From a virus (taxonomy: Duplodnaviria > Heunggongvirae > Uroviricota > Caudoviricetes), in IMG/VR virus record IMGVR_UViG_3300032050_000059: a stretch of 24,313 bases of DNA; one strand, 5' to 3'. The translations under genes and the position numbers were made by a program. This document shows, piece by piece, positions 10,001-24,313 of the stretch. The first letter of the stretch is position 1, and the number at the start of each line of letters is the position of its first letter. The notes beneath the pieces are model-generated. The model was not told the origin of the DNA. It saw only the letters and a list, made by a program, of their open reading frames with translations, and did no database searches.

Positions 10001-13000
10001 ACATTGTTAAGTTTACATCAGCCACAACAATTGGAAACAGTGCCACATGTCAAAAGGCTAGTGGTGACCTCTGTGTCAACCTAGCAGGTGGTATTGGTGT
10101 GGATGTTGGTAAGGGTGGTGGATCTATTGCTACAAACACAGCAGTGGGTAACAGTGCTCTGTCAAGCAACACCACTGGTGCAGGGAACGTTGCTGTTGGA
10201 TATTTTGCTCTAAGATGTAACACTACAGCTAATAATAACATTGCTATTGGTAAAAATGCTTTATGTGCTAATGTATCATCAACTGATCTTACAGCAGTTG
10301 GAGATGCGGCACTTAAAGCAAACACAGGTGCTTATAATTCAGCTTTTGGTGCTGCTGCTTTGTATAAAAATACAACAGGAACTAGTAATACAGCCATTGG
10401 TTTAAGAGCACTACAAGAAAATATTACAGGCAGTAATAACACTGCTGTTGGTAGGTTAGCTCTATTCTGTAACACGGCATCAAATAATACAGCAGTAGGT
10501 ACTTGTGCACTAAGAAGCAATACCACTGGTATTTATAATACAGCTCTTGGAACAAATGCACTCAAATCTAACACTACAGGTGGAAGAAACGTTGGTATTG
10601 GTCTTAACGCTTTGATTAGTAACATTACAGGTGCTCATAACATAGCTGTTGGATATGTTGCTTTAGGTTGTAATGTTTCAGGCAACAATAACATAGCTCT
10701 TGGTAGTTTAGCTTTACAATATAATACAGCCTCCAACAACACTGCTATAGGATTTTTTGCATTAAGAGCTAATACTACAGGTAATTACAACACAGCTATT
10801 GGTAGAAATGCGTTAAAGGCTAATACTATAGGTAGATATATTGTGGCTTTGGGAGATAGTGCCTTATATTCAAACACAACAGGTGAACGAAATACCGCTG
10901 TAGGATATGGTACTTTAGTATGTAATACTGTCGGAGCTAACAATACAGCTCTTGGATTCCAAGCACTCCGTCAAAATACGGCTTCCAATAACACAGCCGT
11001 TGGTTTCTGTGCTTTAAGAAGTAACACCACTGGTGTATATAATACTGCATTAGGTTTTCAATCTTTAGCATCTAATACAACAGGTAATAGTAATACTGCA
11101 GTTGGTTTACAATCACTTTTATACAATACTAGTGGTGTTCAAAATACAGCTGTAGGTAGAAGTACACTATTCTGTAATACTACAGGAAGTAATAACGTAG
11201 CTTTAGGTCAGGCTGCTCTTAGACTTAACACTATAGGTAATAGAAACATAGCCATAGGTAGAGCTGCTATGGAAGCCAATACTACTGGTGCGGATAACGT
11301 AGCTGTAGGACATTATGCTCTTATAGCTAATAGTGTTGGTACAAACAACGTAGCTATTGGTAGAAATGCTTTGTATTGTAATACCGCATCAAATAACACA
11401 GCAGTTGGATTTAGTGCTTTACGTAGTAATACTACTGGTACAAACAACGTAGCAGTAGGTTATTGTGCATTAAGAAATAATACAATTGGCACAGGAAATA
11501 ATGCATTTGGACATGGTTCACTAATCTGCAACACAACAGGAGCTAATAATGTTGCTGTTGGTACATCTTCTTTAGGTAGAAATACAATTGGTACAGACAA
11601 TACTGGTATTGGTGTAAATACTCTTTTATATAATACAACAGGTATAAACAACACAGCTGTTGGTAGAAGTGCTCTTCAAACAAATACTACAGGAACTCTT
11701 AATACAGCAGTAGGTGTTAATTCATTGTTAGTTAATACTGTAGGTTCAGTAAATGTTGCTGTTGGTGTAGGTGCTTTACAATCTAATATATCTGGTAATA
11801 ACAATATCTCAATAGGTGTTAACTCCCTTGTAACAAATCAGGTAGGTAGCTCTAACGTAGCTGTGGGTAGAGATGCTTTGTTTTCTAATACAGCATCAAA
11901 CAATACAGCTATAGGCCACTATTCTTTAAGATGTAATACTACTGGTACACCTAATACAGCTGTTGGTGCTAATGCTCTTGCTTCAAATACAATTGGAGAT
12001 ATTAATACAGCAATAGGTGTAAATGCTTTAAATTCTAATACAACAGGAAGAGGAAACGTCGCTGTAGGTCACACAGCATCCAATTCAAATGTTGTTGGTT
12101 CTTATAACACTTCAGTAGGTGTAAGTGCATTAAGATGTAATACTGCATCAACCAATACTGCAATTGGATTTTATTCTATGAGAAATAACTCCACAGGAAC
12201 TGTCAATACAGCTCTTGGAGTACAATCATTAGCATATAATACAACTGGTGCTAGAAACGTAGCAATAGGACATCAGGCACTTTTCAGTAATGTAGTAGGA
12301 GTAAACAATACATCGGTAGGTTATTTAGCTCTACTTTGCAGCACTGCATCAAACAACACAGCCGTAGGTTATTGCTCTCTTAGAAGCAATACTACTGGTA
12401 CATCAAATGTTTCTGTAGGTGGGTTTTCAACAAGATTAAATACCACTGGTGTACACAACTCTGCTTTAGGATTTGCTGCTCTTGAAACAAATGTAACAGG
12501 AAATTATAATGTTGCCGTTGGATATAGATCATTAAACCAAAACAAAGCTAGCAACAACACAGCAGTTGGATTTAATTCTTTAAGATTTAACACTACAGGT
12601 GCGTCAAACGTAGCTGTTGGTAAAAATGCGTTAGTAAGTAATACTACTGGTGCGCAGAATGTTGCAATGGGGTATAATGCCTTACTTGCAAACACCTCAG
12701 GTGGTAGCAATACTGCTTTGGGAATGAAAGCATTGTATTCTAACACAGTATCAAACAATACAGCTGTTGGTCGATATGCAATGTGTGCTAATACAACAGG
12801 CACCCAAAACACAGGTCTTGGATTTGGTGCATTAAAAACTAACACTACAGGTAATACAAACACAGCTGTTGGATATAACGCTTTAACATACAACACAACA
12901 GGAGGTCTTAACACAGCAATGGGTGTGTTGGCTCTTGAAAAGAATACAACTGGGTGCTATAATATAGCAATAGGACCATCTGCTCTTAGAAACAATACTA

Positions 13001-16000
13001 CAGGTGCTAGTAACGTTATTATAGGTAGAGATGCTGGGTATGCTAACACAATAGGATGTGCTAATACAGCAGTGGGTACTAACTCTTTAAAATGTAATAC
13101 AACAGGAGGCAGAAACTCTGCATTAGGATCTGGTGCCTTAAATGCCAATACAACAGGATGCTTTAACACAGCTGTTGGTTTTAACTCTTTAACAGCAAAC
13201 ACAGTAGGAAGTTTAAATACAGCCCACGGTGTTCAGGCATTAAAATCTAACACCACAGGAAATAGAAATACAGCTTTAGGTTTAAATGCATTATATGCAA
13301 ACAACGGTAGTTACAACGTAGCAGTTGGTACCTATTCAACACAAAATACAACAACAGGTTCTTGTAACGTAGCTGTGGGTTATGCAACGTTAGTTGCTAA
13401 TACAACAGGTATTAGAAACGTAGCAATAGGTGTTTGTGCTTTAAGTGCAAACCAAGCATCTTCAATTGTTGCTGTGGGACCTAATGCCTTAAGATGTAAT
13501 ACAACAGGAGCAGGAAATACAGCACTTGGTAATCAGGCATTGTTTGCTAACACAACAGGAGCAAATAATACTGCTGTTGGACAGAATGCAATGTTATGTA
13601 ATACTACTGGAGGTGGTAACTCTGCACTTGGTGATTACGCATTAAGGAGTAACACAACTGGTAATAATAACGTAGCAATTGGTAGATTAGCAGCATCATG
13701 CAATACTGTTGGTTCTTATAACATAGCAATAGGTAGAGACTCTTCACAAAATAATGTATCAGGAAGTAATAATATTGGTATTGGTTTCCAAGCATTACTA
13801 CAGAACACAGCGTCAAATAATACTGCTCTAGGATATAGAGCATTAAGAAGCAACACTACTGGTGCTTATAATGTAGCAGTAGGTGCATGCTCATCAATGT
13901 ACAACACCACAGGTGGTATAAACAGTGCATTTGGTTTTAGAGCAATGCTTAGAAACACCACTGGTATTCAAAATAATGCATTTGGTTTCTTAGCGCTTTG
14001 TAACAGCAATGGTAACTATAATAACGCATTTGGTGTTTGTGCTCTAAGACAAAACACGACAGGTGCTCGTAATACAGCTGTGGGCCATAGATCCATGAAC
14101 TATAACACAACAGGTAGTTATAACACAGCCATGGGTATGTGTTCTTTGTTGTGTAACACCACAGGTTCTAGTAATGTTGCTTTAGGATTTGCCTCATTAC
14201 AATGTAACTTAACAGGTACAGACAACGTTGCAGTTGGTGTTAATTCGTTATTTAAGAATTGTTCTAATAATAATGTTGCAGTTGGTGCTGCGGCTATGTT
14301 GGAAAACACAACTGGTACAAACAATGTTGCAATTAGTACCAGTGCGTTGAGGAATAATACAACAGGAGTAAGCAATGTTGCTATAGGATTTTATTCTCAA
14401 AGAGTTAGTGTTGCTTCTAACAACACTTCAGTGGGCGTTAGTACACTGAGATGTAACACAACAGGTACTAATAACGTAGCACTTGGAATTTCAGCGTTGT
14501 ATTCAAATACAACAGGTGTTTCAAATGTTGCTATAGGATCTGTTTCTTTGGCAGGCAATACAATAGGTCAACACAACGTAAGCATTGGTAGAGTAGCTCT
14601 TAGAAATAATAGTACAGGTAATAGTAACGTCGCTCTTGGTAGCTATGCTCTTTATGCAAATGTTACAGGTTGCAATAACATAGCCATGGGTTATTTGTCT
14701 TTAGCTTGTAATACTGCTTCTAACAATACAGCAGTGGGATATGCATCATTAAGATTTAATACCTCTGGTACAGACAATGCAGCATTAGGTCAATGTGCAT
14801 TGATTTTCAATACTACGGGTGCACAAAATACAGCTGTTGGTAAACAAGCTATGATGTACAACAACGTAGGTTGTAGAAACACAGCAGTGGGTACTTTTGC
14901 ATTGTTTAGAACAAGGTGTAGCAATCAAGTGGCTGTAGGATATGGTGCTTTAAGATATAACATAACAGGTGTTGGTAATACAGCAGTGGGTTATACCGCA
15001 GGAAGAAATAACGTATGTGGAAACAATAATACATCATTAGGAAATTCAGCATTAACTTCTAATACAGCATCATATAATACAGGTATAGGAGCTCAGGCAT
15101 TAACAAGTAATACAACAGGTGGTAACAATACAGCTGTTGGTATGCAATCAATGTTGCTTAATACAACAGGGTATCGAAACACAGCATTAGGTGTAAGAGC
15201 ATTATGTGCTAATACTACAGCAAACAGTAATACTGCACTAGGGTATAGTGCACTAAGAAAAAATATAACAGGCGCAGATAACACCGCTGTAGGAGGATAT
15301 GCTCTTGCATGTAACACATCAGGACGTCAAAACGTAGCTATTGGTAAGGATTCATCTAGATACAATCAAACAGGTATTTATAATACATCTCTAGGTGTAG
15401 CCTCTTTACAATCAAATACAGCAGGTAGTCGTAACACTGCTATTGGTTATCAAGCTTTATTATTGAATACAGCTTCTAACAATACAGCAGTGGGATATCG
15501 TTCCTTGAGGAATAATACTACAGGCTATTGTAATACGGCTGTAGGTAGATTTGCTTTATTTGCTAATACAACAGGCTTTAGAAACAATGCTTTTGGATCA
15601 AGAGCACTCTATTCCAATACTACAGGTGTTAGAAATGTGGCAATGGGTGATAGAGCTCTGGCAGCAAATACAATAGGTTTAAGTAATAGCTCCTTTGGAA
15701 CTTATGCTCTCTATACTAACACAACAGGATCTCTTAACGTAGCTGTAGGAAGCCAAGCATTATTTTATAATCTAGTTGGCTCAGCTAACACTGCTGTTGG
15801 AGCTGATGCGCTATTGTGTAACAAAGCATCAGGTAACACAGCCGTTGGTTTTTGTGCCTTAAGAACTAATACTACTGGTGCTCAGAATGTAGCTGTGGGG
15901 TACGGAGCATTGAGATTAAATACCACAGGTCAGTATAACACTGCTTTAGGATATCACGCTTTACGTAATAGCACAGGATCACAGAACAATGTTGGTTTAG

Positions 16001-18954
16001 GAATGCATGCAGGATGTGCTATTACTACAGGTAGTAATAATATTGCAATTGGTAGGGACGCTTTATCTACTGGCCAAACCATGAACAACAACGTTGCTGT
16101 AGGTAGAGATGCGCTACTTTTAAATACAGCAGACCACAATACCGCAGTAGGATTCTGCGCACTTAGAAGTAATACGACAGGTAATAGAAATACCGCTGTT
16201 GGTAGATATACTTTAAGATCTAATACAACTGGTAAATACAACGTAGGTGTAGGTGTTAATGCACTAGAATCAAATGCAGTGGGAGATAATAATACTGCTG
16301 TTGGTATGTTTGCACTTACAGCTAACACAGCATCAAACAACACAGCGGTTGGTTTCTGTTCTCTTAGGAGTAATACTACAGGAGGTAATAATACAGCTGT
16401 TGGTAGATACTCACTAAGAACAAACACTGTAGGCTACAATAATACTGCTCTAGGTGTTAATTCACTACAATGTAATGTATCAGGTAGATGGAATACAGCA
16501 GTTGGTTTTGTATCATTAAATTTAAACACTACAGGTATAGACAATACAGCATTAGGTGGAAACTCACTATATGCTAATACAACAGGAAACAGTAATACAG
16601 CGCTAGGTACCAACGCTTTGTGTGCTAATACAACAGGTGGATTCAATGTTGCTGTTGGACAGTCTGCATTAAGAGTAAATACTGCATCTAATAATACGGC
16701 TGTAGGTAGTTGTGCCTTAAGATATAATACCACTGGTACACAAAACGTAGCTCTTGGATTTGAAGCTCTACTATTAAATGTAGGTGCTAATAACAATACA
16801 GCTGTAGGAGCAGTGGCTATGAGAAGAAATACCAGCGGTGCTTACAATACAGCTATGGGTAGGGCTGCTCTTTATGCTAACACAATAGGAACTAGTAACG
16901 TTGCCATTGGATATAGATCATTATTTTCTAATACCACTGGAGATCATAATGTTGGTGTTGGAACTAACTCATTAAGATATAATACTACAGGAGGTTGTAA
17001 CGTAGCATTAGGTAGTACAGCATTGAGAAATAATACAACTGGTATTCGTAATACGGCTGTAGGTTGTGGTGCTATGTATGGAAACACAGGAGGACAAGCA
17101 AATGTAGCTGTTGGATTTAATGCTAATCAAGCTAACAACACAGGTGGAAGTAACACAGCTATTGGATTTAATTCACTGGCTAATAATAAAGCAGGTAGCA
17201 ATACAGCTGTAGGTGCTAGTTCACTTTATAATAACACTACTGGATTTAATAACACAGCTGTAGGACTTAATGCTTTAGTATCAAACACAACGGGATATAA
17301 TAACGCTGCACTTGGTGTACAATCACTTCAGTGCAATACAACAGGAAGACGTAATGTTGCGGTGGGTCCAAATGCACTATTCTGTAATACAACAGGACAA
17401 AATAACACAGGTTTAGGTTATAGATCTGGACAAAATAACCAAACTGGTACAGGAAACGTATCTGTTGGATATTATTCATTAACAGCCAATACAGCTTCAA
17501 ATAATACAGCATTAGGTGCAAGTGCGTTAAGAGCCAACACCACTGGTGCTAATAACACAGCTTTAGGTTATGTTGCGTTAAGGAATAATACTACAGGAGC
17601 ATCTAACGTAGCAATTGGATTTAGAGCACTTTGTGGCAATACAACAGGTGTAGCTAATATATCCATAGGTGTTCAATCCATGCTATATAATGCAGGTGGC
17701 ACTGCAAACATAGCTGTAGGATCACAAGCATTGTATAAGAACAATGGTTCTAATAACACTGCGGTTGGTCATGAAGCAATGAAATGTAACACAACAGGTA
17801 ATAGTAATACTGCTGTTGGATCTAACGCACTGTTTAAGAATACCACTGGTGTTTACAACACAGCGCTTGGAGGTAATGCTTTACAATGTAACACAACTGG
17901 TTGTAGGAACGTTGCTCTAGGTTTAAATACAATGAGATTTAACCTAACAGGATACCAAAATATAGGAATAGGTGTAAATGCTCTGTTGAACAGCTCATCA
18001 AACTCTTGTGACATTGGTATAGGTGATGGTGCTTTGTGTTCTAATACATATGGTGGTGGAAACGTAGGTGTTGGTATGTTGGCACTGAGCAGCCACAACT
18101 GGTACATCAAATCTCACAACGTTGCTATTGGTACCAGGGCATTGAAAGCAAACACCATTGGTAGCAATAATACAGCTGTAGGAGGATATGCTCTATATAA
18201 GAACACTAATGCAGGTGAGAATGCTGCGTTTGGTTACTTGTCTATGGCGTGCAACACCACAGGTAGTAGCAATGCAGGATTGGGAACCCAAACACTAAAA
18301 TCCAATACTACAGGTGTTTGTAATACAGCTGTAGGTACAAGAAGCTTATATCAAAACACCATAGGTACTTGCAATACAGCTGTAGGAACATGGGCCCTCT
18401 TTAACAACACTACAGGAAGATGTCACGTGGCTGTTGGATTTATAGCCAACTGTGCTATAAATGCGAACATCACTAACACTATTGCTGTAGGTACATGTTC
18501 TGCTACATCTGCTACAACAGGTCACACTGTTTGGGGTAATAGTGGTAACAACGTTTGTAACTGCGTATATGCAGCTTGGTCAAACGTATCTGACTGTCGT
18601 GATAAGACCAATGTTGAAACTCTTCCTGAGGAGCTTGGACTTAAATTCATCAAGAAACTTAGACCAGTTAAATACAACTGGGATCATAGAGACAACTATG
18701 TTAGAGAGTGTAACTATGAATATGGTGTGAAGGATGGATCTTTGGCTAGTGAGAAAGAACACTACGGTATTATAGCTCAAGAACTTAAGGGTGTTCTGGA
18801 TGAACTTAATGTGAGATATGATGCTCTAGGACATGATGGTGAGAAAGATGCCTACAGAATGACATATGAGGAACTGATTGCTCCGTTGATTAAGGCCATC
18901 CAAGAGATAGATGCTAGACTGGAAGTTGTGGAAGATAAAGTTTTGGCTAAATAA
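7099..18954 (+). CDS. Giant tail/head fibre protein (3951 aa): docking module, two Gly-X-Y (GTS) collagen-like blocks, about 165 17-aa solenoid repeats, C-terminal peptidase S74 chaperone
   Basis: Uninterrupted 11,856-nt ORF, with the repeat architecture directly visible and a C-terminal WSNVSDCRDKTNVETL...LRPVKYNW...HYGIIAQEL...YEELIAPLIKAIQE S74 signature. Confidence 0.92.
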   Translation: MNVLPNILSYGSSGSSGTSGEAVPHIPDFLESFPQQVETPEPIDPTVGKPSFLSKLYNSPQYQTPDPENTSINYSESFFNTPLLSNIVGSESSEGDGQSFINKLFGTTHCEPKFTSAPVVCAANPCPITLNATCVFYEGPNLIYTGINTNDNLQTALEKIEAAIADELAGSSGTSGTSGTSGTSGTSGSSGTSGTDGSGGSSGTSGTSGIDGTSGTAGTSGTSGTTGTSGSSGTSGTDGSGGSSGTSGTSGTSGTSGTSGTTGTSGTTGTSGTSGTDGSGGTSGTSGTSGTSGTTGTSGTSGTTGTSGSSGTSATSGTSGTSGTSGSSGTTGTSGTSGTTGTSGSSGTTGTSGTSGTSATSGTSGTSGTDGTGGTSGTSGTSATSGTSGTTGTSGSSGTSGTSGTSGTDGSDGSSGTSGTSGTAGTSATSGTSGSSGTAGTSATSGTSGTSGTSATDGTGGTSGTSGTSATSGSSGSSGTDGTGGTSGSSGTSATSGSSGTSGTSGSSGTTGTSGTSGTSGTSATDGTGGTSGTSGTSGSSGTTGTSGTTGTSGTSGTSGTNGSPGTSGTSATSGTSGSSATSGTSGTSGTTGTSGSSGLSGDRYATTSSTTYTLQAAGNTGTITVGTGLAYTVAQSIIIAYNATNYQEAEVTSYNSGTGSLSFTTITQVGSGTYSSWFVNLDGATGGDGSNGTSGTSGTSATSGTSGTTGTSGTSGSSGTTGTSGTSGTPGTSGTSATSGTSGTTGTSGTTGTSGTSGSSGTSGTDGSGGTSGTSGTTGTSGSSGSSGSSGSSGSSGTSATSGTSGTSGTNGSAGSSGSSGSSGSSGSAGTSGTAGSPGTSGTSGSSGTSGTAGTTGTSGTSGTTGTSGTSGLTGTSGTSGVNGTSGTSGTSGSSGTAGSSGTAGSSGTSGTAGTSGTNGSPGTSGTSGSSGSSGSSGTTGTSGSSGTSGTSGSSGTSVAVAGTQEYIVKFTSATTIGNSATCQKASGDLCVNLAGGIGVDVGKGGGSIATNTAVGNSALSSNTTGAGNVAVGYFALRCNTTANNNIAIGKNALCANVSSTDLTAVGDAALKANTGAYNSAFGAAALYKNTTGTSNTAIGLRALQENITGSNNTAVGRLALFCNTASNNTAVGTCALRSNTTGIYNTALGTNALKSNTTGGRNVGIGLNALISNITGAHNIAVGYVALGCNVSGNNNIALGSLALQYNTASNNTAIGFFALRANTTGNYNTAIGRNALKANTIGRYIVALGDSALYSNTTGERNTAVGYGTLVCNTVGANNTALGFQALRQNTASNNTAVGFCALRSNTTGVYNTALGFQSLASNTTGNSNTAVGLQSLLYNTSGVQNTAVGRSTLFCNTTGSNNVALGQAALRLNTIGNRNIAIGRAAMEANTTGADNVAVGHYALIANSVGTNNVAIGRNALYCNTASNNTAVGFSALRSNTTGTNNVAVGYCALRNNTIGTGNNAFGHGSLICNTTGANNVAVGTSSLGRNTIGTDNTGIGVNTLLYNTTGINNTAVGRSALQTNTTGTLNTAVGVNSLLVNTVGSVNVAVGVGALQSNISGNNNISIGVNSLVTNQVGSSNVAVGRDALFSNTASNNTAIGHYSLRCNTTGTPNTAVGANALASNTIGDINTAIGVNALNSNTTGRGNVAVGHTASNSNVVGSYNTSVGVSALRCNTASTNTAIGFYSMRNNSTGTVNTALGVQSLAYNTTGARNVAIGHQALFSNVVGVNNTSVGYLALLCSTASNNTAVGYCSLRSNTTGTSNVSVGGFSTRLNTTGVHNSALGFAALETNVTGNYNVAVGYRSLNQNKASNNTAVGFNSLRFNTTGASNVAVGKNALVSNTTGAQNVAMGYNALLANTSGGSNTALGMKALYSNTVSNNTAVGRYAMCANTTGTQNTGLGFGALKTNTTGNTNTAVGYNALTYNTTGGLNTAMGVLALEKNTTGCYNIAIGPSALRNNTTGASNVIIGRDAGYANTIGCANTAVGTNSLKCNTTGGRNSALGSGALNANTTGCFNTAVGFNSLTANTVGSLNTAHGVQALKSNTTGNRNTALGLNALYANNGSYNVAVGTYSTQNTTTGSCNVAVGYATLVANTTGIRNVAIGVCALSANQASSIVAVGPNALRCNTTGAGNTALGNQALFANTTGANNTAVGQNAMLCNTTGGGNSALGDYALRSNTTGNNNVAIGRLAASCNTVGSYNIAIGRDSSQNNVSGSNNIGIGFQALLQNTASNNTALGYRALRSNTTGAYNVAVGACSSMYNTTGGINSAFGFRAMLRNTTGIQNNAFGFLALCNSNGNYNNAFGVCALRQNTTGARNTAVGHRSMNYNTTGSYNTAMGMCSLLCNTTGSSNVALGFASLQCNLTGTDNVAVGVNSLFKNCSNNNVAVGAAAMLENTTGTNNVAISTSALRNNTTGVSNVAIGFYSQRVSVASNNTSVGVSTLRCNTTGTNNVALGISALYSNTTGVSNVAIGSVSLAGNTIGQHNVSIGRVALRNNSTGNSNVALGSYALYANVTGCNNIAMGYLSLACNTASNNTAVGYASLRFNTSGTDNAALGQCALIFNTTGAQNTAVGKQAMMYNNVGCRNTAVGTFALFRTRCSNQVAVGYGALRYNITGVGNTAVGYTAGRNNVCGNNNTSLGNSALTSNTASYNTGIGAQALTSNTTGGNNTAVGMQSMLLNTTGYRNTALGVRALCANTTANSNTALGYSALRKNITGADNTAVGGYALACNTSGRQNVAIGKDSSRYNQTGIYNTSLGVASLQSNTAGSRNTAIGYQALLLNTASNNTAVGYRSLRNNTTGYCNTAVGRFALFANTTGFRNNAFGSRALYSNTTGVRNVAMGDRALAANTIGLSNSSFGTYALYTNTTGSLNVAVGSQALFYNLVGSANTAVGADALLCNKASGNTAVGFCALRTNTTGAQNVAVGYGALRLNTTGQYNTALGYHALRNSTGSQNNVGLGMHAGCAITTGSNNIAIGRDALSTGQTMNNNVAVGRDALLLNTADHNTAVGFCALRSNTTGNRNTAVGRYTLRSNTTGKYNVGVGVNALESNAVGDNNTAVGMFALTANTASNNTAVGFCSLRSNTTGGNNTAVGRYSLRTNTVGYNNTALGVNSLQCNVSGRWNTAVGFVSLNLNTTGIDNTALGGNSLYANTTGNSNTALGTNALCANTTGGFNVAVGQSALRVNTASNNTAVGSCALRYNTTGTQNVALGFEALLLNVGANNNTAVGAVAMRRNTSGAYNTAMGRAALYANTIGTSNVAIGYRSLFSNTTGDHNVGVGTNSLRYNTTGGCNVALGSTALRNNTTGIRNTAVGCGAMYGNTGGQANVAVGFNANQANNTGGSNTAIGFNSLANNKAGSNTAVGASSLYNNTTGFNNTAVGLNALVSNTTGYNNAALGVQSLQCNTTGRRNVAVGPNALFCNTTGQNNTGLGYRSGQNNQTGTGNVSVGYYSLTANTASNNTALGASALRANTTGANNTALGYVALRNNTTGASNVAIGFRALCGNTTGVANISIGVQSMLYNAGGTANIAVGSQALYKNNGSNNTAVGHEAMKCNTTGNSNTAVGSNALFKNTTGVYNTALGGNALQCNTTGCRNVALGLNTMRFNLTGYQNIGIGVNALLNSSSNSCDIGIGDGALCSNTYGGGNVGVGMLALSSHNWYIKSHNVAIGTRALKANTIGSNNTAVGGYALYKNTNAGENAAFGYLSMACNTTGSSNAGLGTQTLKSNTTGVCNTAVGTRSLYQNTIGTCNTAVGTWALFNNTTGRCHVAVGFIANCAINANITNTIAVGTCSATSATTGHTVWGNSGNNVCNCVYAAWSNVSDCRDKTNVETLPEELGLKFIKKLRPVKYNWDHRDNYVRECNYEYGVKDGSLASEKEHYGIIAQELKGVLDELNVRYDALGHDGEKDAYRMTYEELIAPLIKAIQEIDARLEVVEDKVLAK
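7606..8904 (+). repeat. Collagen-like Gly-X-Y block 1 (144 triplets, mostly Gly-Thr-Ser/Gly-Ser-Ser)
   Basis: First Gly codon at 7606 and last at 8902, exactly 144 x 9 nt apart. The Gly position is occasionally Ala (ATS). Codons are heavily synonymously varied. Confidence 0.93.
9148..9975 (+). repeat. Collagen-like Gly-X-Y block 2 (92 triplets)
   Basis: 828 nt = 92 x 9 nt of GTS/GSS/GTT/GTA triplets, from GATGGDGSNG to ...SSGTS. Confidence 0.93.
10135..18492 (+). repeat. Array of about 165 degenerate 17-aa (51-nt) repeats, consensus NTAVGxxALxxNTTGxx, with interspersed 16-aa variants; likely beta-solenoid/beta-roll
   Basis: The unit is read directly from the translation (e.g. NTAVGNSALSSNTTGAG). 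2786 aa / 17 is about 164. The fold assignment is inference. Confidence 0.9.
18589..18951 (+). other. Peptidase S74 intramolecular chaperone/autocleavage domain
   Basis: S-D-C-R-D-K (Ser3831, Lys at +5, the same spacing as the Ser-Lys dyad of endosialidase chaperones), followed by L.PV.Y.W, GIIAQE and a C-terminal coiled coil. Confidence 0.92.
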
Positions 18955-18973
18955 AAAACAATAGGTATATTTG
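18942..18973 (+). promoter_or_regulatory. Bacteroidota-type sigma-A promoter (-33 TTTG, 20-nt spacer, -7 TATATTTG) heading the glycan-modification operon
   Basis: TTTG at 18942-18945, 20 nt, then TATATTTG at 18966-18973, followed by C, at the fibre/GT boundary. Confidence 0.65.
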
Positions 18974-18976
18974 CCT

Positions 18977-19636
18977 ATGCGTAAAGTTCTCATAGGTACA
19001 CCCTCATATGATGGGAGAATAGATGTCTGGTATGCTAATAGCTTACTGGGCACTGTTAAAATGGCTTATGAGAAGGATATATATGTCCATGCTATTTACA
19101 CAAGCTATGATAGCCTCATACAAAGGGCTAGAAATAGCCTGTTTAAACTAGCTCTTACAGGTGGATATGATGATTTGTTCTTTATAGACTCAGATGCTGA
19201 ATGGGAACCAGAATGGTTCTTCAGGCTTTTGGAAAGACCAGAACCTATTGTAGGAGGGGCATTGGTTAAGAAGAGTGATGATAACGAGGGGTACACAGTG
19301 AAACTGATGGATAAAAACCTGAAGTGGTCCAAGGATAAGAAGATAATAGAGGTGGATGGTGTAGGTACAGGCTTCCTAAAGGTGAACAGGTTTGCTCTGG
19401 AGAAACTATGGGAGATGTCTGATAAGTATACATCTGAGGGTGAGGAGCACAGAATGATATGTGATATAAAGGTGGAGAACGGTGACCTAATATCTGAAGA
19501 CTACATCCTCTGTAACAAGTGGAAATCATTAGGATATAAGGTGTGGCTAGATCCAACTATAACACTCAACCACATAGGAACTAGGAAATACAAGGGTGAT
19601 TTCCAATCCTTTATAAAGAAACACGGGTATGTTTGA
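18977..19636 (+). CDS. GT-A fold (GT2-like) glycosyltransferase (219 aa)
   Basis: KVLIGTPSY N-terminal strand, SLIQRARN, DxD motif FIDSD (19187-19195), GVGTGF, SEDY...G.KVWLDPTITLNHIG. ATG 18977 is preferred over TTG 18971, which lies inside the -7 element. Confidence 0.82.
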   Translation: MRKVLIGTPSYDGRIDVWYANSLLGTVKMAYEKDIYVHAIYTSYDSLIQRARNSLFKLALTGGYDDLFFIDSDAEWEPEWFFRLLERPEPIVGGALVKKSDDNEGYTVKLMDKNLKWSKDKKIIEVDGVGTGFLKVNRFALEKLWEMSDKYTSEGEEHRMICDIKVENGDLISEDYILCNKWKSLGYKVWLDPTITLNHIGTRKYKGDFQSFIKKHGYV

Positions 19637-20540
19637 TAAACCAATGGGAGGTACAGAGCTTATGTATAATGAGCTCATGAAGAGATTACCAGAAGAATAT
19701 AAGGACAAGTGGTCCATATTTAACTACATAGGAGATGCTGATTTTAAAAAGCCAACCATCTATTGGAACCAGCTAAGCTATGATCAACAGGCTGTACAAT
19801 GGCTAAGAGATCCTAAGAACATTGAAGCTATTGATCAGTTTGTATTTATAAGTCACTGGCAATCAGAATGTTATAGAAAACTATTCAATATTCCTGGATA
19901 CAAAACTTCTGTTATAAAGAATGCTTGTATTGGTGTAGAACCACGTAAACCAGGAGAAAGAGAAATAGTGAGGCTTTGTTATACATCCACACCCTTCAGA
20001 GGACTTGATGTTCTTCTAAAGGCATGGGACATACTTAAGCCTAAGGGATGTGAGCTACATGTTTTCTCTAGCTGTAAAATATATGGAGAAGACTATGCTT
20101 CCACAGAAGATCCTAAATATACAGACTTGTACAACGCCTGTCTAAACACAGAGGGTATTGTGTACAGAGGATCTATTCCTAATGAGGAGCTGAGGAAAGA
20201 ACTTCCCAGCTTTGACATCCTAGCCTATCCCTGTACATTTGAGGAAACCTCTTGTATAGCTGTGATAGAAGCTCTGTCAGCTGGACTAAAGGTAGTGACA
20301 AGTAATATAGGCGCTCTACCTGAAACTACAGAAGGATGGGCTACCATATATCCCTACCTAATGGATAAGGATAGACATGCTGAAGCATTTGCCTCCATCC
20401 TCAAGAAGGAAATAGATGCTGTCAAAACTGGCATGCATCTAGAGGAACAAGTGAACATATATGCTCCTAGATGGAGCTGGGACAACAGAATAAACCAATG
20501 GACAAACTATTTAGACACATTAACCCCAAGAGAGCCCTAG
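19629..20540 (+). CDS. GT-B fold (GT4-like) glycosyltransferase (303 aa)
   Basis: GGTEL N-terminal motif, YTSTPFRGLDVLL, and ILAYPCTFEETSCIAVIEALSAGLKVVTSNIGALPE containing the E-x7-E retaining-GT motif. Confidence 0.88.
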   Translation: MFDKPMGGTELMYNELMKRLPEEYKDKWSIFNYIGDADFKKPTIYWNQLSYDQQAVQWLRDPKNIEAIDQFVFISHWQSECYRKLFNIPGYKTSVIKNACIGVEPRKPGEREIVRLCYTSTPFRGLDVLLKAWDILKPKGCELHVFSSCKIYGEDYASTEDPKYTDLYNACLNTEGIVYRGSIPNEELRKELPSFDILAYPCTFEETSCIAVIEALSAGLKVVTSNIGALPETTEGWATIYPYLMDKDRHAEAFASILKKEIDAVKTGMHLEEQVNIYAPRWSWDNRINQWTNYLDTLTPREP

Positions 20541-21100
20541 ACATAGGAGCACATGTGGGCAACTTCACAAAGGAACTCTATTACAGATTTCCTGAGTGTA
20601 GAGTGGTTATGATAGAGGCTAACAAGAACTGTGAGCCCCATCTAAGACTATTGGGAAAGCCCTATGAGATTGTAGCTCTGTCTGATAAAAATGGAACAGC
20701 TGAGCTCTATATGGAGGATGGCAATCCCATAGGTACAGGTAGTTCCTTGTATAGGGAGAACACGCAGTGGTATACACAGGGTAAAACCCAGACAGTGGTG
20801 ACAAAGCGTCTAGATGATTGTAACTATTTCAATGGAGAACACCCTGATTTCATCAAGATGGATGTGCAGGGTTCTGAATTAGACATAATAAAAGGTGGTG
20901 AGAATACAATAAAAAATGCTACCTTTGTGTTAATGGAAACCTCTCTGTTAGAATATAACCAGGGAGCTCCTTTGATAGATGCATTAGTGGAGAAAATGGT
21001 GGACCTCCAGTTCTGCATGATTGACATTGTTGAATACCACCGCTTAGAAAACGGACTTATTTTTCAACTAGATATATTATTTAAAAACTTAAAACAATAA
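20498..21100 (+). CDS. FkbM-family SAM-dependent methyltransferase (200 aa)
   Basis: ALDIGAHVG (motif I), VVMIEAN, IKMDVQGSELDIIKGG, Q.DILF. The start is placed at ATG 20498 because motif I then falls at the usual N-terminal position; ATG 20471 is possible. Confidence 0.88.
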   Translation: MDKLFRHINPKRALDIGAHVGNFTKELYYRFPECRVVMIEANKNCEPHLRLLGKPYEIVALSDKNGTAELYMEDGNPIGTGSSLYRENTQWYTQGKTQTVVTKRLDDCNYFNGEHPDFIKMDVQGSELDIIKGGENTIKNATFVLMETSLLEYNQGAPLIDALVEKMVDLQFCMIDIVEYHRLENGLIFQLDILFKNLKQ

Positions 21101-21106
21101 GAAGCC

Positions 21107-21457
21107 ATGAAAATGCTTTTTGCAAAGATTAATCCCGTTGCTGAAATTCCTGAAATGGAATCTCCTTTCCAGTATGATGTTAAACAAGCTGACTATCTTA
21201 CAGCTGTAGCATCTCCTTATCGCTTGGGTGCTGAAGAAGTGAACTTTAGCCTCATCTATGGCACTGCTACATTTGATGCTGAAGGAAACATGGAAACATT
21301 TACACGCTTATTGGGTGGATCGCTTACATTAGGTGCTCCTTACATTCAGCAGTGGGGATTGGATGATTCTGTAATTCTTGGAACTATTTGTGAGCAAGTG
21401 GGAACAGAAGCTGTTGAATTCATTGAGGGTGACCCAAAGAACTTCAACCCATTCTAA
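21107..21457 (+). CDS. Hypothetical protein (116 aa, acidic)
   Basis: The ORF fills the gap with 6-nt and 25-nt spacing. No catalytic motif recognised; contains QQWGLDDSVIL. Confidence 0.75.
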   Translation: MKMLFAKINPVAEIPEMESPFQYDVKQADYLTAVASPYRLGAEEVNFSLIYGTATFDAEGNMETFTRLLGGSLTLGAPYIQQWGLDDSVILGTICEQVGTEAVEFIEGDPKNFNPF

Positions 21458-21482
21458 TTGAACATTAAAACCAACAAACATA

Positions 21483-22304
21483 ATGGTCAAAAAGATATTC
21501 TACAACAGCTCTCTACCTAGAGCTGGAAGTACACTTATTCAGAATATTCTAGCACAGAATCCAGAGATACATTCCACTCCCACCTCTGGCATCTTTGAGA
21601 TGTACATGCAAGCTCGTACCTATTTCTCTAATGGGTTAGAGTTTAAGGCACAAGATCAAAATCTCATGGAAGCAGGGTTTAAGGGAATGCTTAAAGATGG
21701 ACTCTATGGATTCTATAATGCTGTAACAGACCGTCCATATGTGATGGAAAAGTCTAGGGGTTGGGCAATGGAGCGTGATTTTATTCATGCCTTTGATCCC
21801 AACCCCAAGATTATTTGTATGATAAGGGACATTCGTGCTATCTATTCTTCTCTAGAAAAGAAGTATAGAAACAATCCTTTAGTGGACACAAACATTGCTA
21901 ACTGGGGTAATCTAACAGGCACCACCACAGATAAGCGTATGGTGGTGTGGTCCAACAACCCTCCTATAGGTCCATCTCTGGACCGTTTGTATCAGACACT
22001 TGTAGCTGGTACACATCAACACATCCTATTTATTAAATTTGAAGAGCTATGCCTAGATCCTGATACACAACTAAGACGTGTGTATGAGTATTTAGAGCTT
22101 CCCTATTTTCAGCATGATTTCAAAAACATACCACAGTATTCTATAGAGGATGACAAATGGTATGGTATATTTGGTGACCACATCATCCGTGGAGAGTTAA
22201 AGCCTGTAAAAGATGACTTCCGTGAGGTGCTCGGTCCTAATGCATGCAAGATAATAGAGGAAGGCTACCCATGGTTCTTCAATGATTTTGGATATAAAAT
22301 ATAA
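21483..22304 (+). CDS. PAPS-dependent sulfotransferase (273 aa)
   Basis: 5'-PSB loop SSLPRAGSTLIQNIL, 3'-PB motif KIICMIRDIRAIYSS, and IKFEELCLDP...VYEYLEL, typical of the sulfotransferase P-loop fold. Confidence 0.88.
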   Translation: MVKKIFYNSSLPRAGSTLIQNILAQNPEIHSTPTSGIFEMYMQARTYFSNGLEFKAQDQNLMEAGFKGMLKDGLYGFYNAVTDRPYVMEKSRGWAMERDFIHAFDPNPKIICMIRDIRAIYSSLEKKYRNNPLVDTNIANWGNLTGTTTDKRMVVWSNNPPIGPSLDRLYQTLVAGTHQHILFIKFEELCLDPDTQLRRVYEYLELPYFQHDFKNIPQYSIEDDKWYGIFGDHIIRGELKPVKDDFREVLGPNACKIIEEGYPWFFNDFGYKI

Positions 22305-22308
22305 ACCA

Positions 22309-23262
22309 ATGAACGTAGGATATAAGACAGAAGAGGAATTGCAAAAGGATGAGAAGCTGACAGTGTTAGAAGATCGTTCTTCAGACAGCAATAAGTATGT
22401 TGTATGGCATATAGAAGGTGGGCTGGGAAAGAACATAGCAGCTACATCCATTATAAAGGATGTGAAGGAAAGATATTCAGATAGGAAACTCATCATGGTG
22501 GTGTCCTATCCTGAGATATTCCTAAACAACCCTAACATACACAGGGTGTACAGGGTGGGCATGACCTCCTATTTCTATGATGACTACATCAAGGATAAGG
22601 ACACTATTATATTCCGTCATGAACCTTATTTCCAGAGTGATCACATCCTAAAGAAGAAACATCTGATACACAACTGGTGTGATTTGATGGATGTAGAATA
22701 CAAAGATCAACTTCCTCAGTTTCATCCTAACGCTGTGCAGAAAATGTTACAATACAACTGGCAGAGAGAAAAACCTGTCATGGTGATACAGACAAATGGA
22801 GGAGGTATGGGTAATGAGTTCTCTTATGCTTGGTCAAGAGATATGCCTTATGAAATAGCTGTTGCTGTTGCTGATAGATATAGAAACACCCATCATATTA
22901 TACAGGTGACAAGACCTAACACCAATCTTATTCCTAATGTGGAATATGTCACCCAACAGCTTAGCAACTTTGAAATGTTGTCTATTCTAGCTGTTTCTCA
23001 GAAGCGTGTGTTAATAGATTCCTTCTTACAGCATGCTGCTGCAGGTATGGGACTTCCTTCTACGGTGCTATGGATAGGCACATCTCCTATCAACTTTGGA
23101 TACAAGATGCACAACAACATTGTTGCTAAAGATCCTCCAGGCAGCACTAAGCTTATAGACAGCTACATCTTTGACTATTCACTTGAAGGGTCAATTCATG
23201 AGTGTCCATATAACAGCGTAGAAGAAATGTTTGACATTAACACCATCTTTAAGAGTATATGA
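22309..23262 (+). CDS. GT-B fold, GT9 (heptosyltransferase)-like glycosyltransferase (317 aa)
   Basis: WHIEGGLGKNIAATSII (cf. GT9 GxxGD.....P) and LIDSFLQHAAAGMGLPSTVLWIGTSPINFGY (cf. DSGxxHxAxAxxxP). ATG 22309 lies 4 nt after the upstream stop; ATG 22282 is an alternative. Confidence 0.7.
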   Translation: MNVGYKTEEELQKDEKLTVLEDRSSDSNKYVVWHIEGGLGKNIAATSIIKDVKERYSDRKLIMVVSYPEIFLNNPNIHRVYRVGMTSYFYDDYIKDKDTIIFRHEPYFQSDHILKKKHLIHNWCDLMDVEYKDQLPQFHPNAVQKMLQYNWQREKPVMVIQTNGGGMGNEFSYAWSRDMPYEIAVAVADRYRNTHHIIQVTRPNTNLIPNVEYVTQQLSNFEMLSILAVSQKRVLIDSFLQHAAAGMGLPSTVLWIGTSPINFGYKMHNNIVAKDPPGSTKLIDSYIFDYSLEGSIHECPYNSVEEMFDINTIFKSI

Positions 23263-23717
23263 TTATAGTTCTTTTTGGACAGCCACACAGTGGCAAGTCC
23301 ACAATAGCTAATGAAATCCTAGCACACACTACATCCTTTGTAAACATAGATGGGGATAAGCTCAGAGAGCTGTTTGTTAATAAAGACTACTCTAGAGAGG
23401 GTAGAATAAAGAACCTGAACAGGGCTAGTGATATTGCTCACTTCCTAAACTCTACAGGGACAAACGTCATCCTCTCTCTTGTCTATCCTTATAAGGAAGC
23501 CAGAGACTATCTCAATAACCTTACAAAGGATGTCATATGGGTGTATTTAACATACACAGGAGAAAGAGGAAGAGAGGGTTTTCATGTACAAGATTTTGAC
23601 TATCCTGTAGAAGAAGATGTTTTGAATATTAACACATCTTCTGTATCTTTGGAATATTGTATGCAAATTATAAACAACTACATAGATGCAAAACGTTCTA
23701 GCAAAAGCAGCAAGTAA
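23259..23717 (+). CDS. cysC: Adenylyl-sulfate (APS) kinase-like protein, compact form (152 aa)
   Basis: P-loop GQPHSGKST, IDGDKLR, YSREGRIKNLNRASDIA, VILSLVYPYKEAR, all matching CysC motifs. ATGA overlap with the upstream gene. Confidence 0.82.
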   Translation: MIIVLFGQPHSGKSTIANEILAHTTSFVNIDGDKLRELFVNKDYSREGRIKNLNRASDIAHFLNSTGTNVILSLVYPYKEARDYLNNLTKDVIWVYLTYTGERGREGFHVQDFDYPVEEDVLNINTSSVSLEYCMQIINNYIDAKRSSKSSK

Positions 23718-24072
23718 GTCAGGACAATGGGCCATGTTTATTGGAAGATGGCAACCTTGGCATGCTGGTCACAGATGGTTAATTGATCAAGCCCTTAACG
23801 AGGGTAAGAAGGTGTTGCTCTGTATAAGAGAAGTGGAACCAGATGAAAAGAATCCCTGGACACCACATCAGGTTATGATGACACTTGCTAATGAATTGAA
23901 TGGCCTTATACAAGAGGGCAAGTTGAGGATAATGACCATCCCTGATATTGAATCTATTAACATTGGTAGAGGTGTGGGTTATGATGTTATAGAACATGTT
24001 CCTCCTGCAGAAATACATGATATATCTGCTACAAAGATTAGAGAGAATATGAAAAGGGAGGGTAGATTATGA
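23686..24072 (+). CDS. HxGH (cytidylyltransferase-like) nucleotidyltransferase (128 aa); candidate minimal ATP sulfurylase
   Basis: MFIGRWQPWHAGH (HxGH motif), KNPWT, INIGRGVGY and ISATKIR. The fold is supported by motifs; the substrate is inferred from context only. Confidence 0.75.
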   Translation: MQNVLAKAASKSGQWAMFIGRWQPWHAGHRWLIDQALNEGKKVLLCIREVEPDEKNPWTPHQVMMTLANELNGLIQEGKLRIMTIPDIESINIGRGVGYDVIEHVPPAEIHDISATKIRENMKREGRL

Positions 24073-24293
24073 TAGTAGAAAGAAAACGACACATAGCTAA
24101 GACTATAAGCTACCGTCTTATTAGCACACTGATTGGTGTACTCACTATGTTTATTGTAACAGGATCTATGAAAGCAGGCGCTGCATTTGGTGTAGCTGAG
24201 CTGTTATGGAAACCCATACAATACTACATCCACGAACGTATATGGTATAAGTGGATTAGATATGGCCTAAAAGGGCAAAAACAACCTGACTAG
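24069..24293 (+). CDS. DUF2061-like small membrane protein (74 aa)
   Basis: RHIAKTISYRLIST...TGS...A.FG.AE...K...YYIHERIW matches my recollection of the DUF2061 pattern; two hydrophobic segments; ATGA overlap. Confidence 0.78.
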   Translation: MIVERKRHIAKTISYRLISTLIGVLTMFIVTGSMKAGAAFGVAELLWKPIQYYIHERIWYKWIRYGLKGQKQPD

Positions 24294-24313
24294 CATCTAT
24301 CTTCTGGTGGCAT

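Follow-up and report, generated by a model that had tools for sequence, protein, structure and literature searches.

A Phage Operon behind a Giant Tail Fibre Gene May Build a Methylated, Sulfated Glycan with Its Own Sulfate-Donor Supply

What would a phage do with genes for glycosyltransferases, a methyltransferase, a sulfotransferase and sulfate activation placed directly behind the gene for a giant tail fibre? The question is raised by a 24,313-nucleotide (nt) stretch of viral DNA, here called the window (IMG/VR record IMGVR_UViG_3300032050_000059; Caudoviricetes), in which nine genes, g1 to g9, follow a fibre gene on the same strand. An earlier reading of the letters alone, referred to below as the original prediction, proposed that the phage builds a methylated, sulfated glycan on its virion fibre. 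The window proved to be positions 45377 to 69689 of an 87.6-kb viral contig, estimated to be 76% complete; the source is an uncultured, crAss-like phage, in keeping with the phage origin assumed earlier. Our analysis suggests that a virion protein, in all likelihood the upstream tail fibre, receives a methylated, sulfated sugar from this cassette, which would bring its own sulfate-donor supply, and we put the probability of this reading at roughly 0.55. Of a narrower conclusion we are fairly confident, namely that this operon combines glycan building and sulfation with a private supply of 3'-phosphoadenosine-5'-phosphosulfate (PAPS).

A conserved operon linked to tail fibre genes

The region from 18977 to 24293 is filled by nine tightly packed plus-strand open reading frames (ORFs), which lie where the original prediction had placed them and are separated by identical gaps (-8, -43, +6, +25, +4, -4, -32 and -4 nt, with starts at 18977 for g1, 20498 for g3 and 22309 for g6); homologues of g6 in relatives begin at the same ATG (22309). 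The genes can be taken as real, since their order and sequence are kept at 33 to 96% amino acid identity in more than 10 other viral contigs. Judged against Pfam's own cut-offs, six of the products exceed the threshold for a family, namely GT4, FkbM, Sulfotransfer_3, APS_kinase, CTP_transf_like (HxGH) and DUF2061, each of which had been called from motifs. Among them, g2 (19629 to 20540) is a GT4-type glycosyltransferase of the GT-B fold (Glyco_trans_1_4, 4e-12; Glycos_transf_1, 4.5e-11; PF13692, 47 bits against a cut-off of 27), and g3 (20471 to 21100, the start perhaps being the ATG at 20498) is an FkbM-family S-adenosylmethionine (SAM) methyltransferase (Methyltransf_21, 4.4e-21; PF05050, 76.2 bits against 22.7).

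Related viral loci were gathered in two ways, with the sulfotransferase and with the fibre C terminus as the query. The sulfotransferase query found 11 viral loci. In five of these (L005 to L009) the fibre is followed by g1 to g9 in the same order, and another (L004) begins inside g2. Two distant loci with ~50% identity (L010 and L011) hold a core of GT9-fold, sulfotransferase, adenosine-5'-phosphosulfate (APS) kinase, nucleotidyltransferase and DUF2061 genes, with a stand-alone TibC-like gene ahead of the core in L011, and L012 to L014 combine a repeat protein with sulfotransferase, GT8, TibC-like, GT9-fold and second sulfotransferase genes. The fibre C terminus retrieved 13 loci, and the complete operon lies directly behind the fibre in 9 of them and in partial form (g1, g2, g3 and g5) in L107. 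The whole arrangement of fibre and g1 to g9 is present in L005 to L009, L097, L100 to L102 and L109.

Core parts of the cassette also recur behind the fibres of unrelated phages, in two additional loci that came from two look-ups of more distant sulfotransferase clusters. In a 398-kb contig (L110), an S74 fibre that shares these repeats is followed, in this order, by homologues of g1, of g2 and g3 (joined as a GT4::FkbM fusion) and of g4, the sulfotransferase, a g6 homologue and DUF2061. In a 137-kb contig (L111), four S74 fibre genes come first, and behind them stand genes for the sulfotransferase, the g6-type protein, APS kinase, the nucleotidyltransferase and DUF2061, together with a convergent GT4/GT9 multidomain gene. 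In 10 of the 10 assessable loci retrieved with the sulfotransferase (L005 to L009, L012 to L014, L110 and L111), a repeat fibre directly precedes the cassette or the sulfotransferase. The original prediction had named a lack of co-occurrence with Ser/Thr-rich structural genes as one thing that would refute it, and the linkage is present in all 10 of these loci. The neighbours in still more distant loci (L010, L011 and L019) are other large proteins with 21 to 28% Ser plus Thr.

In the other 3 of the 13 loci found with the fibre query (L103 to L105), a different glycosyltransferase set stands behind the same type of fibre. It comprises PF11397, which is the Skp1 protein N-acetylglucosamine (GlcNAc)-transferase family, GT25, HtrL (HtrL_YibB) and several unknowns (L104:14040-19521; also in L103 and L105). 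The slot behind the fibre seems to be a holder of exchangeable glycosylation kits.

The fibre and its repeats

The fibre gene (7099 to 18954, plus strand) encodes the proposed acceptor, a protein of 3951 residues that matches Pfam Collagen (3.5e-70) and Peptidase_S74 (3.8e-9) and, among the PHROG families used for phage protein matches, tail fibre/spike. Its C terminus is a Peptidase_S74 chaperone domain (PF13884, 37.1 bits against a cut-off of 22). Residues ~200 to 1000 are collagen-like Gly-Thr/Ser-Ser/Thr triplets, and residues 1013 to 3775 are ~160 copies of a 17-residue repeat with the consensus NTAVGxxALxxNTTGxx. The composition of 481 Ser and 616 Thr agrees with the hundreds of Ser/Thr per chain noted earlier.

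Which part of the fibre goes with the cassette can be read from the relatives. Collagen-like runs are often absent from the fibres that accompany full cassettes (L097, L100 and L102), while the 17-residue motif is present in all, in 20 to 154 copies. Judging from these sequences, it is the 17-residue repeat region, not the Gly-Thr-Ser part, that constantly accompanies the cassette. Because full cassettes occur with fibres without collagen-like runs, the Gly-Thr-Ser region is not supported as the specific acceptor. The original prediction survives here in modified form: the enzyme combination of the operon and the fibre linkage across relatives favour a methylated, sulfated glycan on the virion fibre, and the cassette is indeed kept behind fibres, but the Gly-Thr-Ser repeats on which that proposal had focused are neither the constant partner nor the expected acceptor.

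A separate observation concerns the type of linkage. The 17-residue repeats (window positions 10135 to 18500, fibre residues 1013 to 3800) hold 160 Asn-x-Ser/Thr sequons, mostly NTT, and decoration of the fibre may be N-linked instead of O-linked.

Sulfotransferase and glycosyltransferases

The product of g5 (21483 to 22304) is a predicted PAPS-dependent sulfotransferase of the Sulfotransfer_3 family (PF13469, 7e-19, 69.3 bits against a cut-off of 27; PF00685, 2e-11). Its PRAGST and RDIRAIYSS segments align with the 5'-phosphosulfate-binding (5'-PSB) and 3'-phosphate-binding (3'-PB) motifs, respectively, of TPST1. At least 757 clusters belong to the family, and the largest contig among them reaches 402 kb.

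A g6-type gene is paired with the sulfotransferase in every locus. For g6 itself (22309 to 23262), no Pfam match was found at an E value of ≤0.1, PF01075 included, and a profile of eight homologues found nothing among PDB sequences. An AlphaFold model built on the eight homologues, with a predicted local distance difference test (pLDDT) score of 72, was searched against PDB structures; the best match is the GT9 enzyme 3tov (E value, 2.5e-9; template modelling [TM] score, 0.63), and the next are WaaF (1psw, listed next after 3tov), WaaC and TibC. The GT9-like call made for g6 from motifs is upheld by this predicted fold, and g6 appears to be a glycosyltransferase-like protein of the GT-B type.

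The GT-A call for g1 (18977 to 19636), made earlier from motifs, is weak. An IDSD (DxD-like) motif is present and phrog_1574 is matched at 1e-25; GT2 (PF00535) reaches 16.6 bits against a cut-off of 23.3. In the Atlas protein clusters, which were searched for neighbours of g1 and g4, Anp1 or GT2 occurs on only 12 to 33% of the members of clusters neighbouring g1 (leads only), and a search of PDB sequences gave nothing meaningful. A homologue that is 67% identical occupies the same position in the 398-kb contig.

A dedicated supply of PAPS

A sulfotransferase of this kind needs PAPS, and the genes behind it suggest a source. The product of g7 (23259 to 23717) is a trimmed APS kinase. It matches PF01583 at 5.4e-13 (49.7 bits against a cut-off of 21.1) over model positions 4 to 107 of 152, the P-loop GQPHSGKST and the DGD motif (as IDGD) are present, and 18 of 18 PDB sequence matches at an E value of ≤0.01 are APS kinases or APS-kinase-containing PAPS synthases. 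Its length is 152 residues, compared with 175 to 211 for stand-alone solved APS kinases.

The next gene, g8 (23686 to 24072), encodes an HxGH nucleotidyltransferase of 128 residues. Its only Pfam match is PF01467 (5e-6), and it is a member of neither Sat (PF01747) nor CysD. The nearest structures, both by sequence (E value, 1e-5) and by fold, are archaeal-type NadM nicotinamide mononucleotide (NMN) adenylyltransferases; PPAT and ATP sulfurylase cores come lower in the fold list, the Sat cores only at Foldseek E values of ~0.02 to 0.03. The family is large, with 7762 matches at 90% clustering and 4894 representatives at 50%, and its genomic company is consistent. A g8-type gene lies beside an APS kinase gene in Marinimicrobia, Patescibacteria and SAR86 genomes, and an Acidobacteriota locus (L021) encodes a protein in which the g8-type domain is joined to a complete CysC (APS_kinase, 8e-51). 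Among the top 150 representatives of the family, 50 have at least 233 residues, and 40 of these 50 carry APS_kinase, on either side. The viral loci place a DUF2061 gene after the nucleotidyltransferase; in the window this is g9 (24069 to 24293; PF09834, 4.3e-14), which encodes a small membrane protein and closes the PAPS module.

A second association was found in SAR11, where a g8 homologue lies upstream of aprBA in most (~65) of ~70 loci. The order is g8 homologue, an unknown 263-residue gene, aprB, aprA, an unknown 116-residue gene and a TauE sulfite exporter; one example is "Candidatus Pelagibacter ubique" HIMB058 (L056:3710-8834), with ~65 others among L022 to L094. The position of the g8 homologue is occupied by sat in sat-aprMBA clusters. 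No Sat, CysD or APS kinase was found in the two SAR11 genomes checked, and no Sat or CysD in one Marinimicrobia genome, assemblies that may be incomplete; the single APS kinase match of that Marinimicrobia genome adjoins the nucleotidyltransferase by coordinates.

Because of the fusions to APS kinase (40 of 50) and the sat-like position beside aprBA in SAR11, g8 is probably an unrecognised mini ATP sulfurylase, with which the phage would make its own PAPS. Consistent coupling to APS kinase and aprBA led us to reject the NMN adenylyltransferase reading of g8. During sulfite oxidation in SAR11, the g8-type protein may be the partner that releases sulfate after AprBA and that had been missing there. 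The private PAPS supply that had been proposed beside the sulfotransferase gains from both genes, as g7 is an APS kinase homologue and g8 belongs to an APS-coupled family.

Several further members of the family deserve mention. Fusions of g8-type and APS kinase domains occur in both domain orders (L021:7300-8256; L092:1386-2207; proteins P0132 to P0271), and in isolated instances the fusion partner is a methyltransferase, chorismate synthase or DHQS domain. PHROG 10255 is a kinase-nucleotidyltransferase fusion; in Xylella phage Salvo, the fusion is gp32, annotated "kinase" (L095:5578-6324), an early-region gene that only a few others separate from one for cysteine dioxygenase. In a Marinimicrobia single-cell genome (L018:4757-12592), the APS kinase and g8-type pair lies amid Sulfotransfer_5, UDP-glucose dehydrogenase, a Wzx-GT4 fusion and polysaccharide synthesis genes, which looks like a cellular sulfated-polysaccharide locus using the same PAPS module.

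A TibC-type gene next to the operon

The best clue to the acceptor lies at the window edge. The last 58 nt of the window (24256 to 24313) are the 3' end of a convergent, minus-strand gene of 1139 codons (G000:C1:69632-73051; L003:333-3752), which overlaps g9 by 38 nt. Its product has Pfam matches to SAM methyltransferase, GT4 and GT9. When compared with PDB sequences by phmmer, residues 832 to 1131 align with residues 61 to 379 of TibC (PDB 4rap; E value, 5.3e-49; ~300 residues). TibC, a cytoplasmic enzyme of E. coli, adds heptose to the repeat adhesins TibA and AIDA-I and hyperglycosylates the one encoded next door; D110 is its catalytic Asp, and Cys339, Cys342, Cys358 and Cys370 bind iron (PMC4358343). 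All five residues are kept, as D879, C1091, C1094, C1110 and C1122. By this measure the domain is clearly a true homologue of the bacterial autotransporter heptosyltransferase (BAHT) protein O-heptosyltransferases, heptosyl transfer itself being a prediction. Members of that family form a dodecameric ring and move heptose from ADP-heptose to Ser in the passenger domain of a repeat protein. Since a TibC-type protein O-glycosyltransferase domain adjoins the operon, the acceptor is probably a protein.

The convergent gene is retained in L004 to L006 and L108, and stand-alone TibC-like genes share an operon with a g6-type gene and the sulfotransferase in L011 to L014. A BLASTP comparison of g6 with the 1139-residue protein was not significant. 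Between the methyltransferase and GT4 domains, ~500 residues (roughly 120 to 615) match no family; a DADS motif in this stretch could mark a further GT-A domain. The phage as a whole has at least six glycosyltransferase domains. A possible experimental handle is offered by Microcystis phage Mel-JY01, a cultured cyanophage, in which a 1226-residue protein annotated "methyltransferase FkbM" (L096:4750-8430) has a C terminus 42% identical to the TibC-type domain and is encoded next to a structural protein gene.

Proposed pathway and points against it

In the pathway that we propose, g8 would make APS from ATP and sulfate, and g7 would convert APS to PAPS. In the cytoplasm of the infected cell, the TibC-type domain of the 1139-residue protein would prime Ser or Thr in the 17-residue repeats; in relatives without a TibC-type gene, the GT9-fold g6 would act as the primer. 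The products of g1 and g2 and the other glycosyltransferase domains would lengthen the sugar from host nucleotide sugars, the FkbM protein g3 and the second methyltransferase would methylate it, and g5 would move sulfate from PAPS onto it. The enzymatic activities, the acceptor and the order of these steps, like the roles of g4 and DUF2061, are what we infer from protein families and folds, conserved gene order, linkage to fibre genes and the linkage of g8 to APS-handling enzymes.

More tentatively, the proposal could be widened. Several unrelated phage lineages might decorate their fibres with a methylated, sulfated O-glycan, primed by TibC-like or GT9-fold enzymes, with the sulfation fuelled by a so far unrecognised family of ~125-residue ATP sulfurylases. 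In SAR11 this family would supply the sat partner that aprBA lacks, and in some Marinimicrobia it would be the sole enzyme to activate sulfate. We consider this wider version conceivable but somewhat doubtful.

A number of observations weigh against glycosylation and sulfation of the fibre. On the side of sulfate activation, g8 is closer to NMN adenylyltransferases than to ATP sulfurylases in both sequence and fold, and the last third of the APS kinase model, the C-terminal lid, is unmatched in g7. Homologues of the kinase-nucleotidyltransferase fusion occur in Xylella, Xanthomonas and Stenotrophomonas phages, and in the one such locus inspected, that of Xylella phage Salvo, no sulfotransferase is annotated near the fusion gene. 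On the side of glycan synthesis, the call for g1 is below threshold, and no TibC-type gene is detectable near the operon in L009/L099, L100 and L101. Nucleotide-sugar synthesis families (NTP_transferase, Epimerase and SIS) were found neither in the window, as the original prediction had remarked, nor in the whole contig, which is ~76% complete. Finally, a cytoplasmic scheme does not account for a membrane protein such as DUF2061, and lipopolysaccharide (LPS) and O-antigen synthesis, too, typically employs GT9, GT4, GT2 and FkbM proteins.

Alternative explanations

The last two points are those expected if the cassette instead remodels a glycan of the host envelope (LPS core, O-antigen or capsule) during infection, blocking superinfection or leaving fewer progeny stuck to debris; adjacency to the fibre would then reflect only the clustering of receptor-related genes. 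Further in its favour, the Marinimicrobia homologues of the PAPS module lie within a polysaccharide cluster with a Wzx-like domain. However, no flippase, polymerase, lipid-carrier priming transferase or ligase was seen among the genes scanned (the window, the ORFs of L003 and the cassettes of relatives), and the gene content, which is crAss-like, gives no hint of lysogeny. Proteins are the substrates of the TibC family (PMC4358343), and the alternative cassette of the sister phages includes a protein GlcNAc-transferase family. We regard envelope remodelling as unlikely, because flippase, polymerase and priming transferase are missing from the scanned genes, the TibC family is protein specific and the sister cassette carries the protein GlcNAc-transferase.

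The sulfotransferase might also sulfate the fibre protein directly, on Tyr, Ser or Thr, with the glycosyltransferases serving some separate end. The solved structures nearest to g5 by sequence are TPST1 and TPST2, though weakly (E value, 1e-4), and Tyr makes up 3% of the fibre, often at repeat positions 6 and 7. The catalytic base of TPST is the Glu of its "GEET" segment, however, and in a pairwise alignment the corresponding g5 segment reads STPTSG, in which the Glu is not kept. Known Tyr sulfation sites are acidic, but Asp plus Glu amount to only 2.4% of the fibre, a very low share. As the sulfotransferase is always paired with a GT9-fold gene, a sugar acceptor is suggested, and direct sulfation of the protein appears improbable.

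Another possibility is that g7 to g9 form an auxiliary metabolic module that raises sulfur assimilation in the host and has nothing to do with the glycosyltransferases. Such a role would suit the kinase-nucleotidyltransferase fusions of phages in which no sulfotransferase is annotated nearby, and the closeness of the Salvo copy to a cysteine dioxygenase gene. Yet no PAPS reductase or sulfite reductase was found among the genes scanned in the window and downstream, and the module is co-operonic with the sulfotransferase, with overlapping genes, in every related locus, so that we consider this explanation very improbable. Least credible of all is a sulfated, methylated small glycoside or lipid, Nod-factor-like or natural-product-like: a sulfotransferase with a dedicated PAPS supply follows the logic of NodH and NodPQ, and 2-oxoglutarate (2OG)-oxygenase and amine-oxidase genes neighbour the cassette in L111, but no scaffold-forming enzymes are seen in the window, and however much the phage backbone differs, the cassette stays strictly linked to fibre genes.

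Relation to known systems

The closest parallels are the BAHT systems TibC/TibA and Aah/AIDA-I of E. coli, in which a long repeat adhesin is hyperglycosylated, prior to its export, by a GT9-related enzyme from the neighbouring gene (PMC4358343; PDB 4rap and 4rb4). Here, in contrast, the domain is fused to a methyltransferase and GT4 and is borne by a phage, and it would presumably act on a tail fibre, whose repeats are 17 instead of 19 residues long. The phage system would also differ in having further transferases, methylation and sulfation, and heptose pathway genes were not found in the contig.

Some mycobacteriophages glycosylate their virions with phage-encoded glycosyltransferases. As in those phages, the glycosyltransferase genes here stand in the structural gene block, would act on the phage's own virions and would draw on host sugar nucleotides. 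The mycobacteriophage targets are capsid and tail-tube proteins, and neither a sulfotransferase nor a PAPS supply nor a BAHT-type enzyme is known to be involved. The idea of phage-encoded virion glycosylation is echoed in a further report (PMC11256854).

The step from sulfate through APS to PAPS is shared with PAPS synthases, often a single fused protein (human PAPSS1/2; Aquifex Sat-CysC, PDB 2gks; CysDN/CysC; rhizobial NodPQ with NodH), and the dedication of a PAPS supply to one sulfotransferase is shared with NodPQ and NodH. Unlike those enzymes, g8 is of a ~125-residue, NadM-like type that matches neither Sat nor CysD, and g7 has no C-terminal lid part. Cyanophages S-SKS1, S-SRM01 and S-SCSM1 and OM43 phages have annotated sulfotransferase genes that are distant homologues of g5 (Sulfotransfer_3, 24 to 30% identity); according to the authors, the function of phage sulfotransferases remains unclear (PMC10580990). 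The S-SRM01 gene adjoins a glycosyltransferase and a sugar epimerase gene; unlike here, the annotation of these loci shows neither a PAPS module nor a link to a fibre.

The enzyme families, phage-encoded virion glycosylation and adhesin heptosylation (PMC4358343) are already known; what is new is that they would be combined on a phage fibre, that sulfate would be added and that a candidate mini ATP sulfurylase takes part. The original prediction knew of no phage virion sulfation system, and our literature search, which did not cover all journals, likewise found no published description of one or of the present cassette. If the proposal is correct, no phage before this one has been seen to carry a sulfated glycan on its virion or to employ protein glycosylation of the autotransporter type. 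Coating the host-recognition fibre with polyanionic sugar could alter adsorption, stability or recognition, effects that current host-range models ignore. Whatever the acceptor, the g8 family is a testable candidate for a new and very widespread class of ATP sulfurylases (4894 representative clusters), and it could fill a gap in reconstructions of sulfur metabolism in SAR11 and other abundant aquatic bacteria.

Other features of the operon and contig

Between g3 and the sulfotransferase gene lies g4 (21107 to 21457), a conserved protein of 116 residues for which no Pfam, PHROG or usable Atlas match was found. Homologues of 31 to 94% identity occupy the same slot, always immediately 5' of the sulfotransferase gene, and g4 could be an adaptor or specificity factor. 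The slot is kept from the 88-kb crAss-like phage to the 398-kb jumbo phage (31% identity).

A promoter-like element had been placed at 18943 to 18971, in front of the operon, but sigma-70-like sites are no more frequent than chance (16 observed, 17.3 expected), and a terminator scan likewise gave no enrichment. Further downstream in the contig are lysis genes, a collagen-like protein of 292 residues (L003:6725-7603) and two more, adjacent GT2 genes with an NHL-repeat protein (L003:14593-16749). The operon DNA has no match in the GenBank phage collection. The public sequencing runs in which the stretch occurs, all of DNA, bear the labels fungus, freshwater and lake metagenome, and on the strength of these labels the phage is probably a freshwater rather than a marine one.

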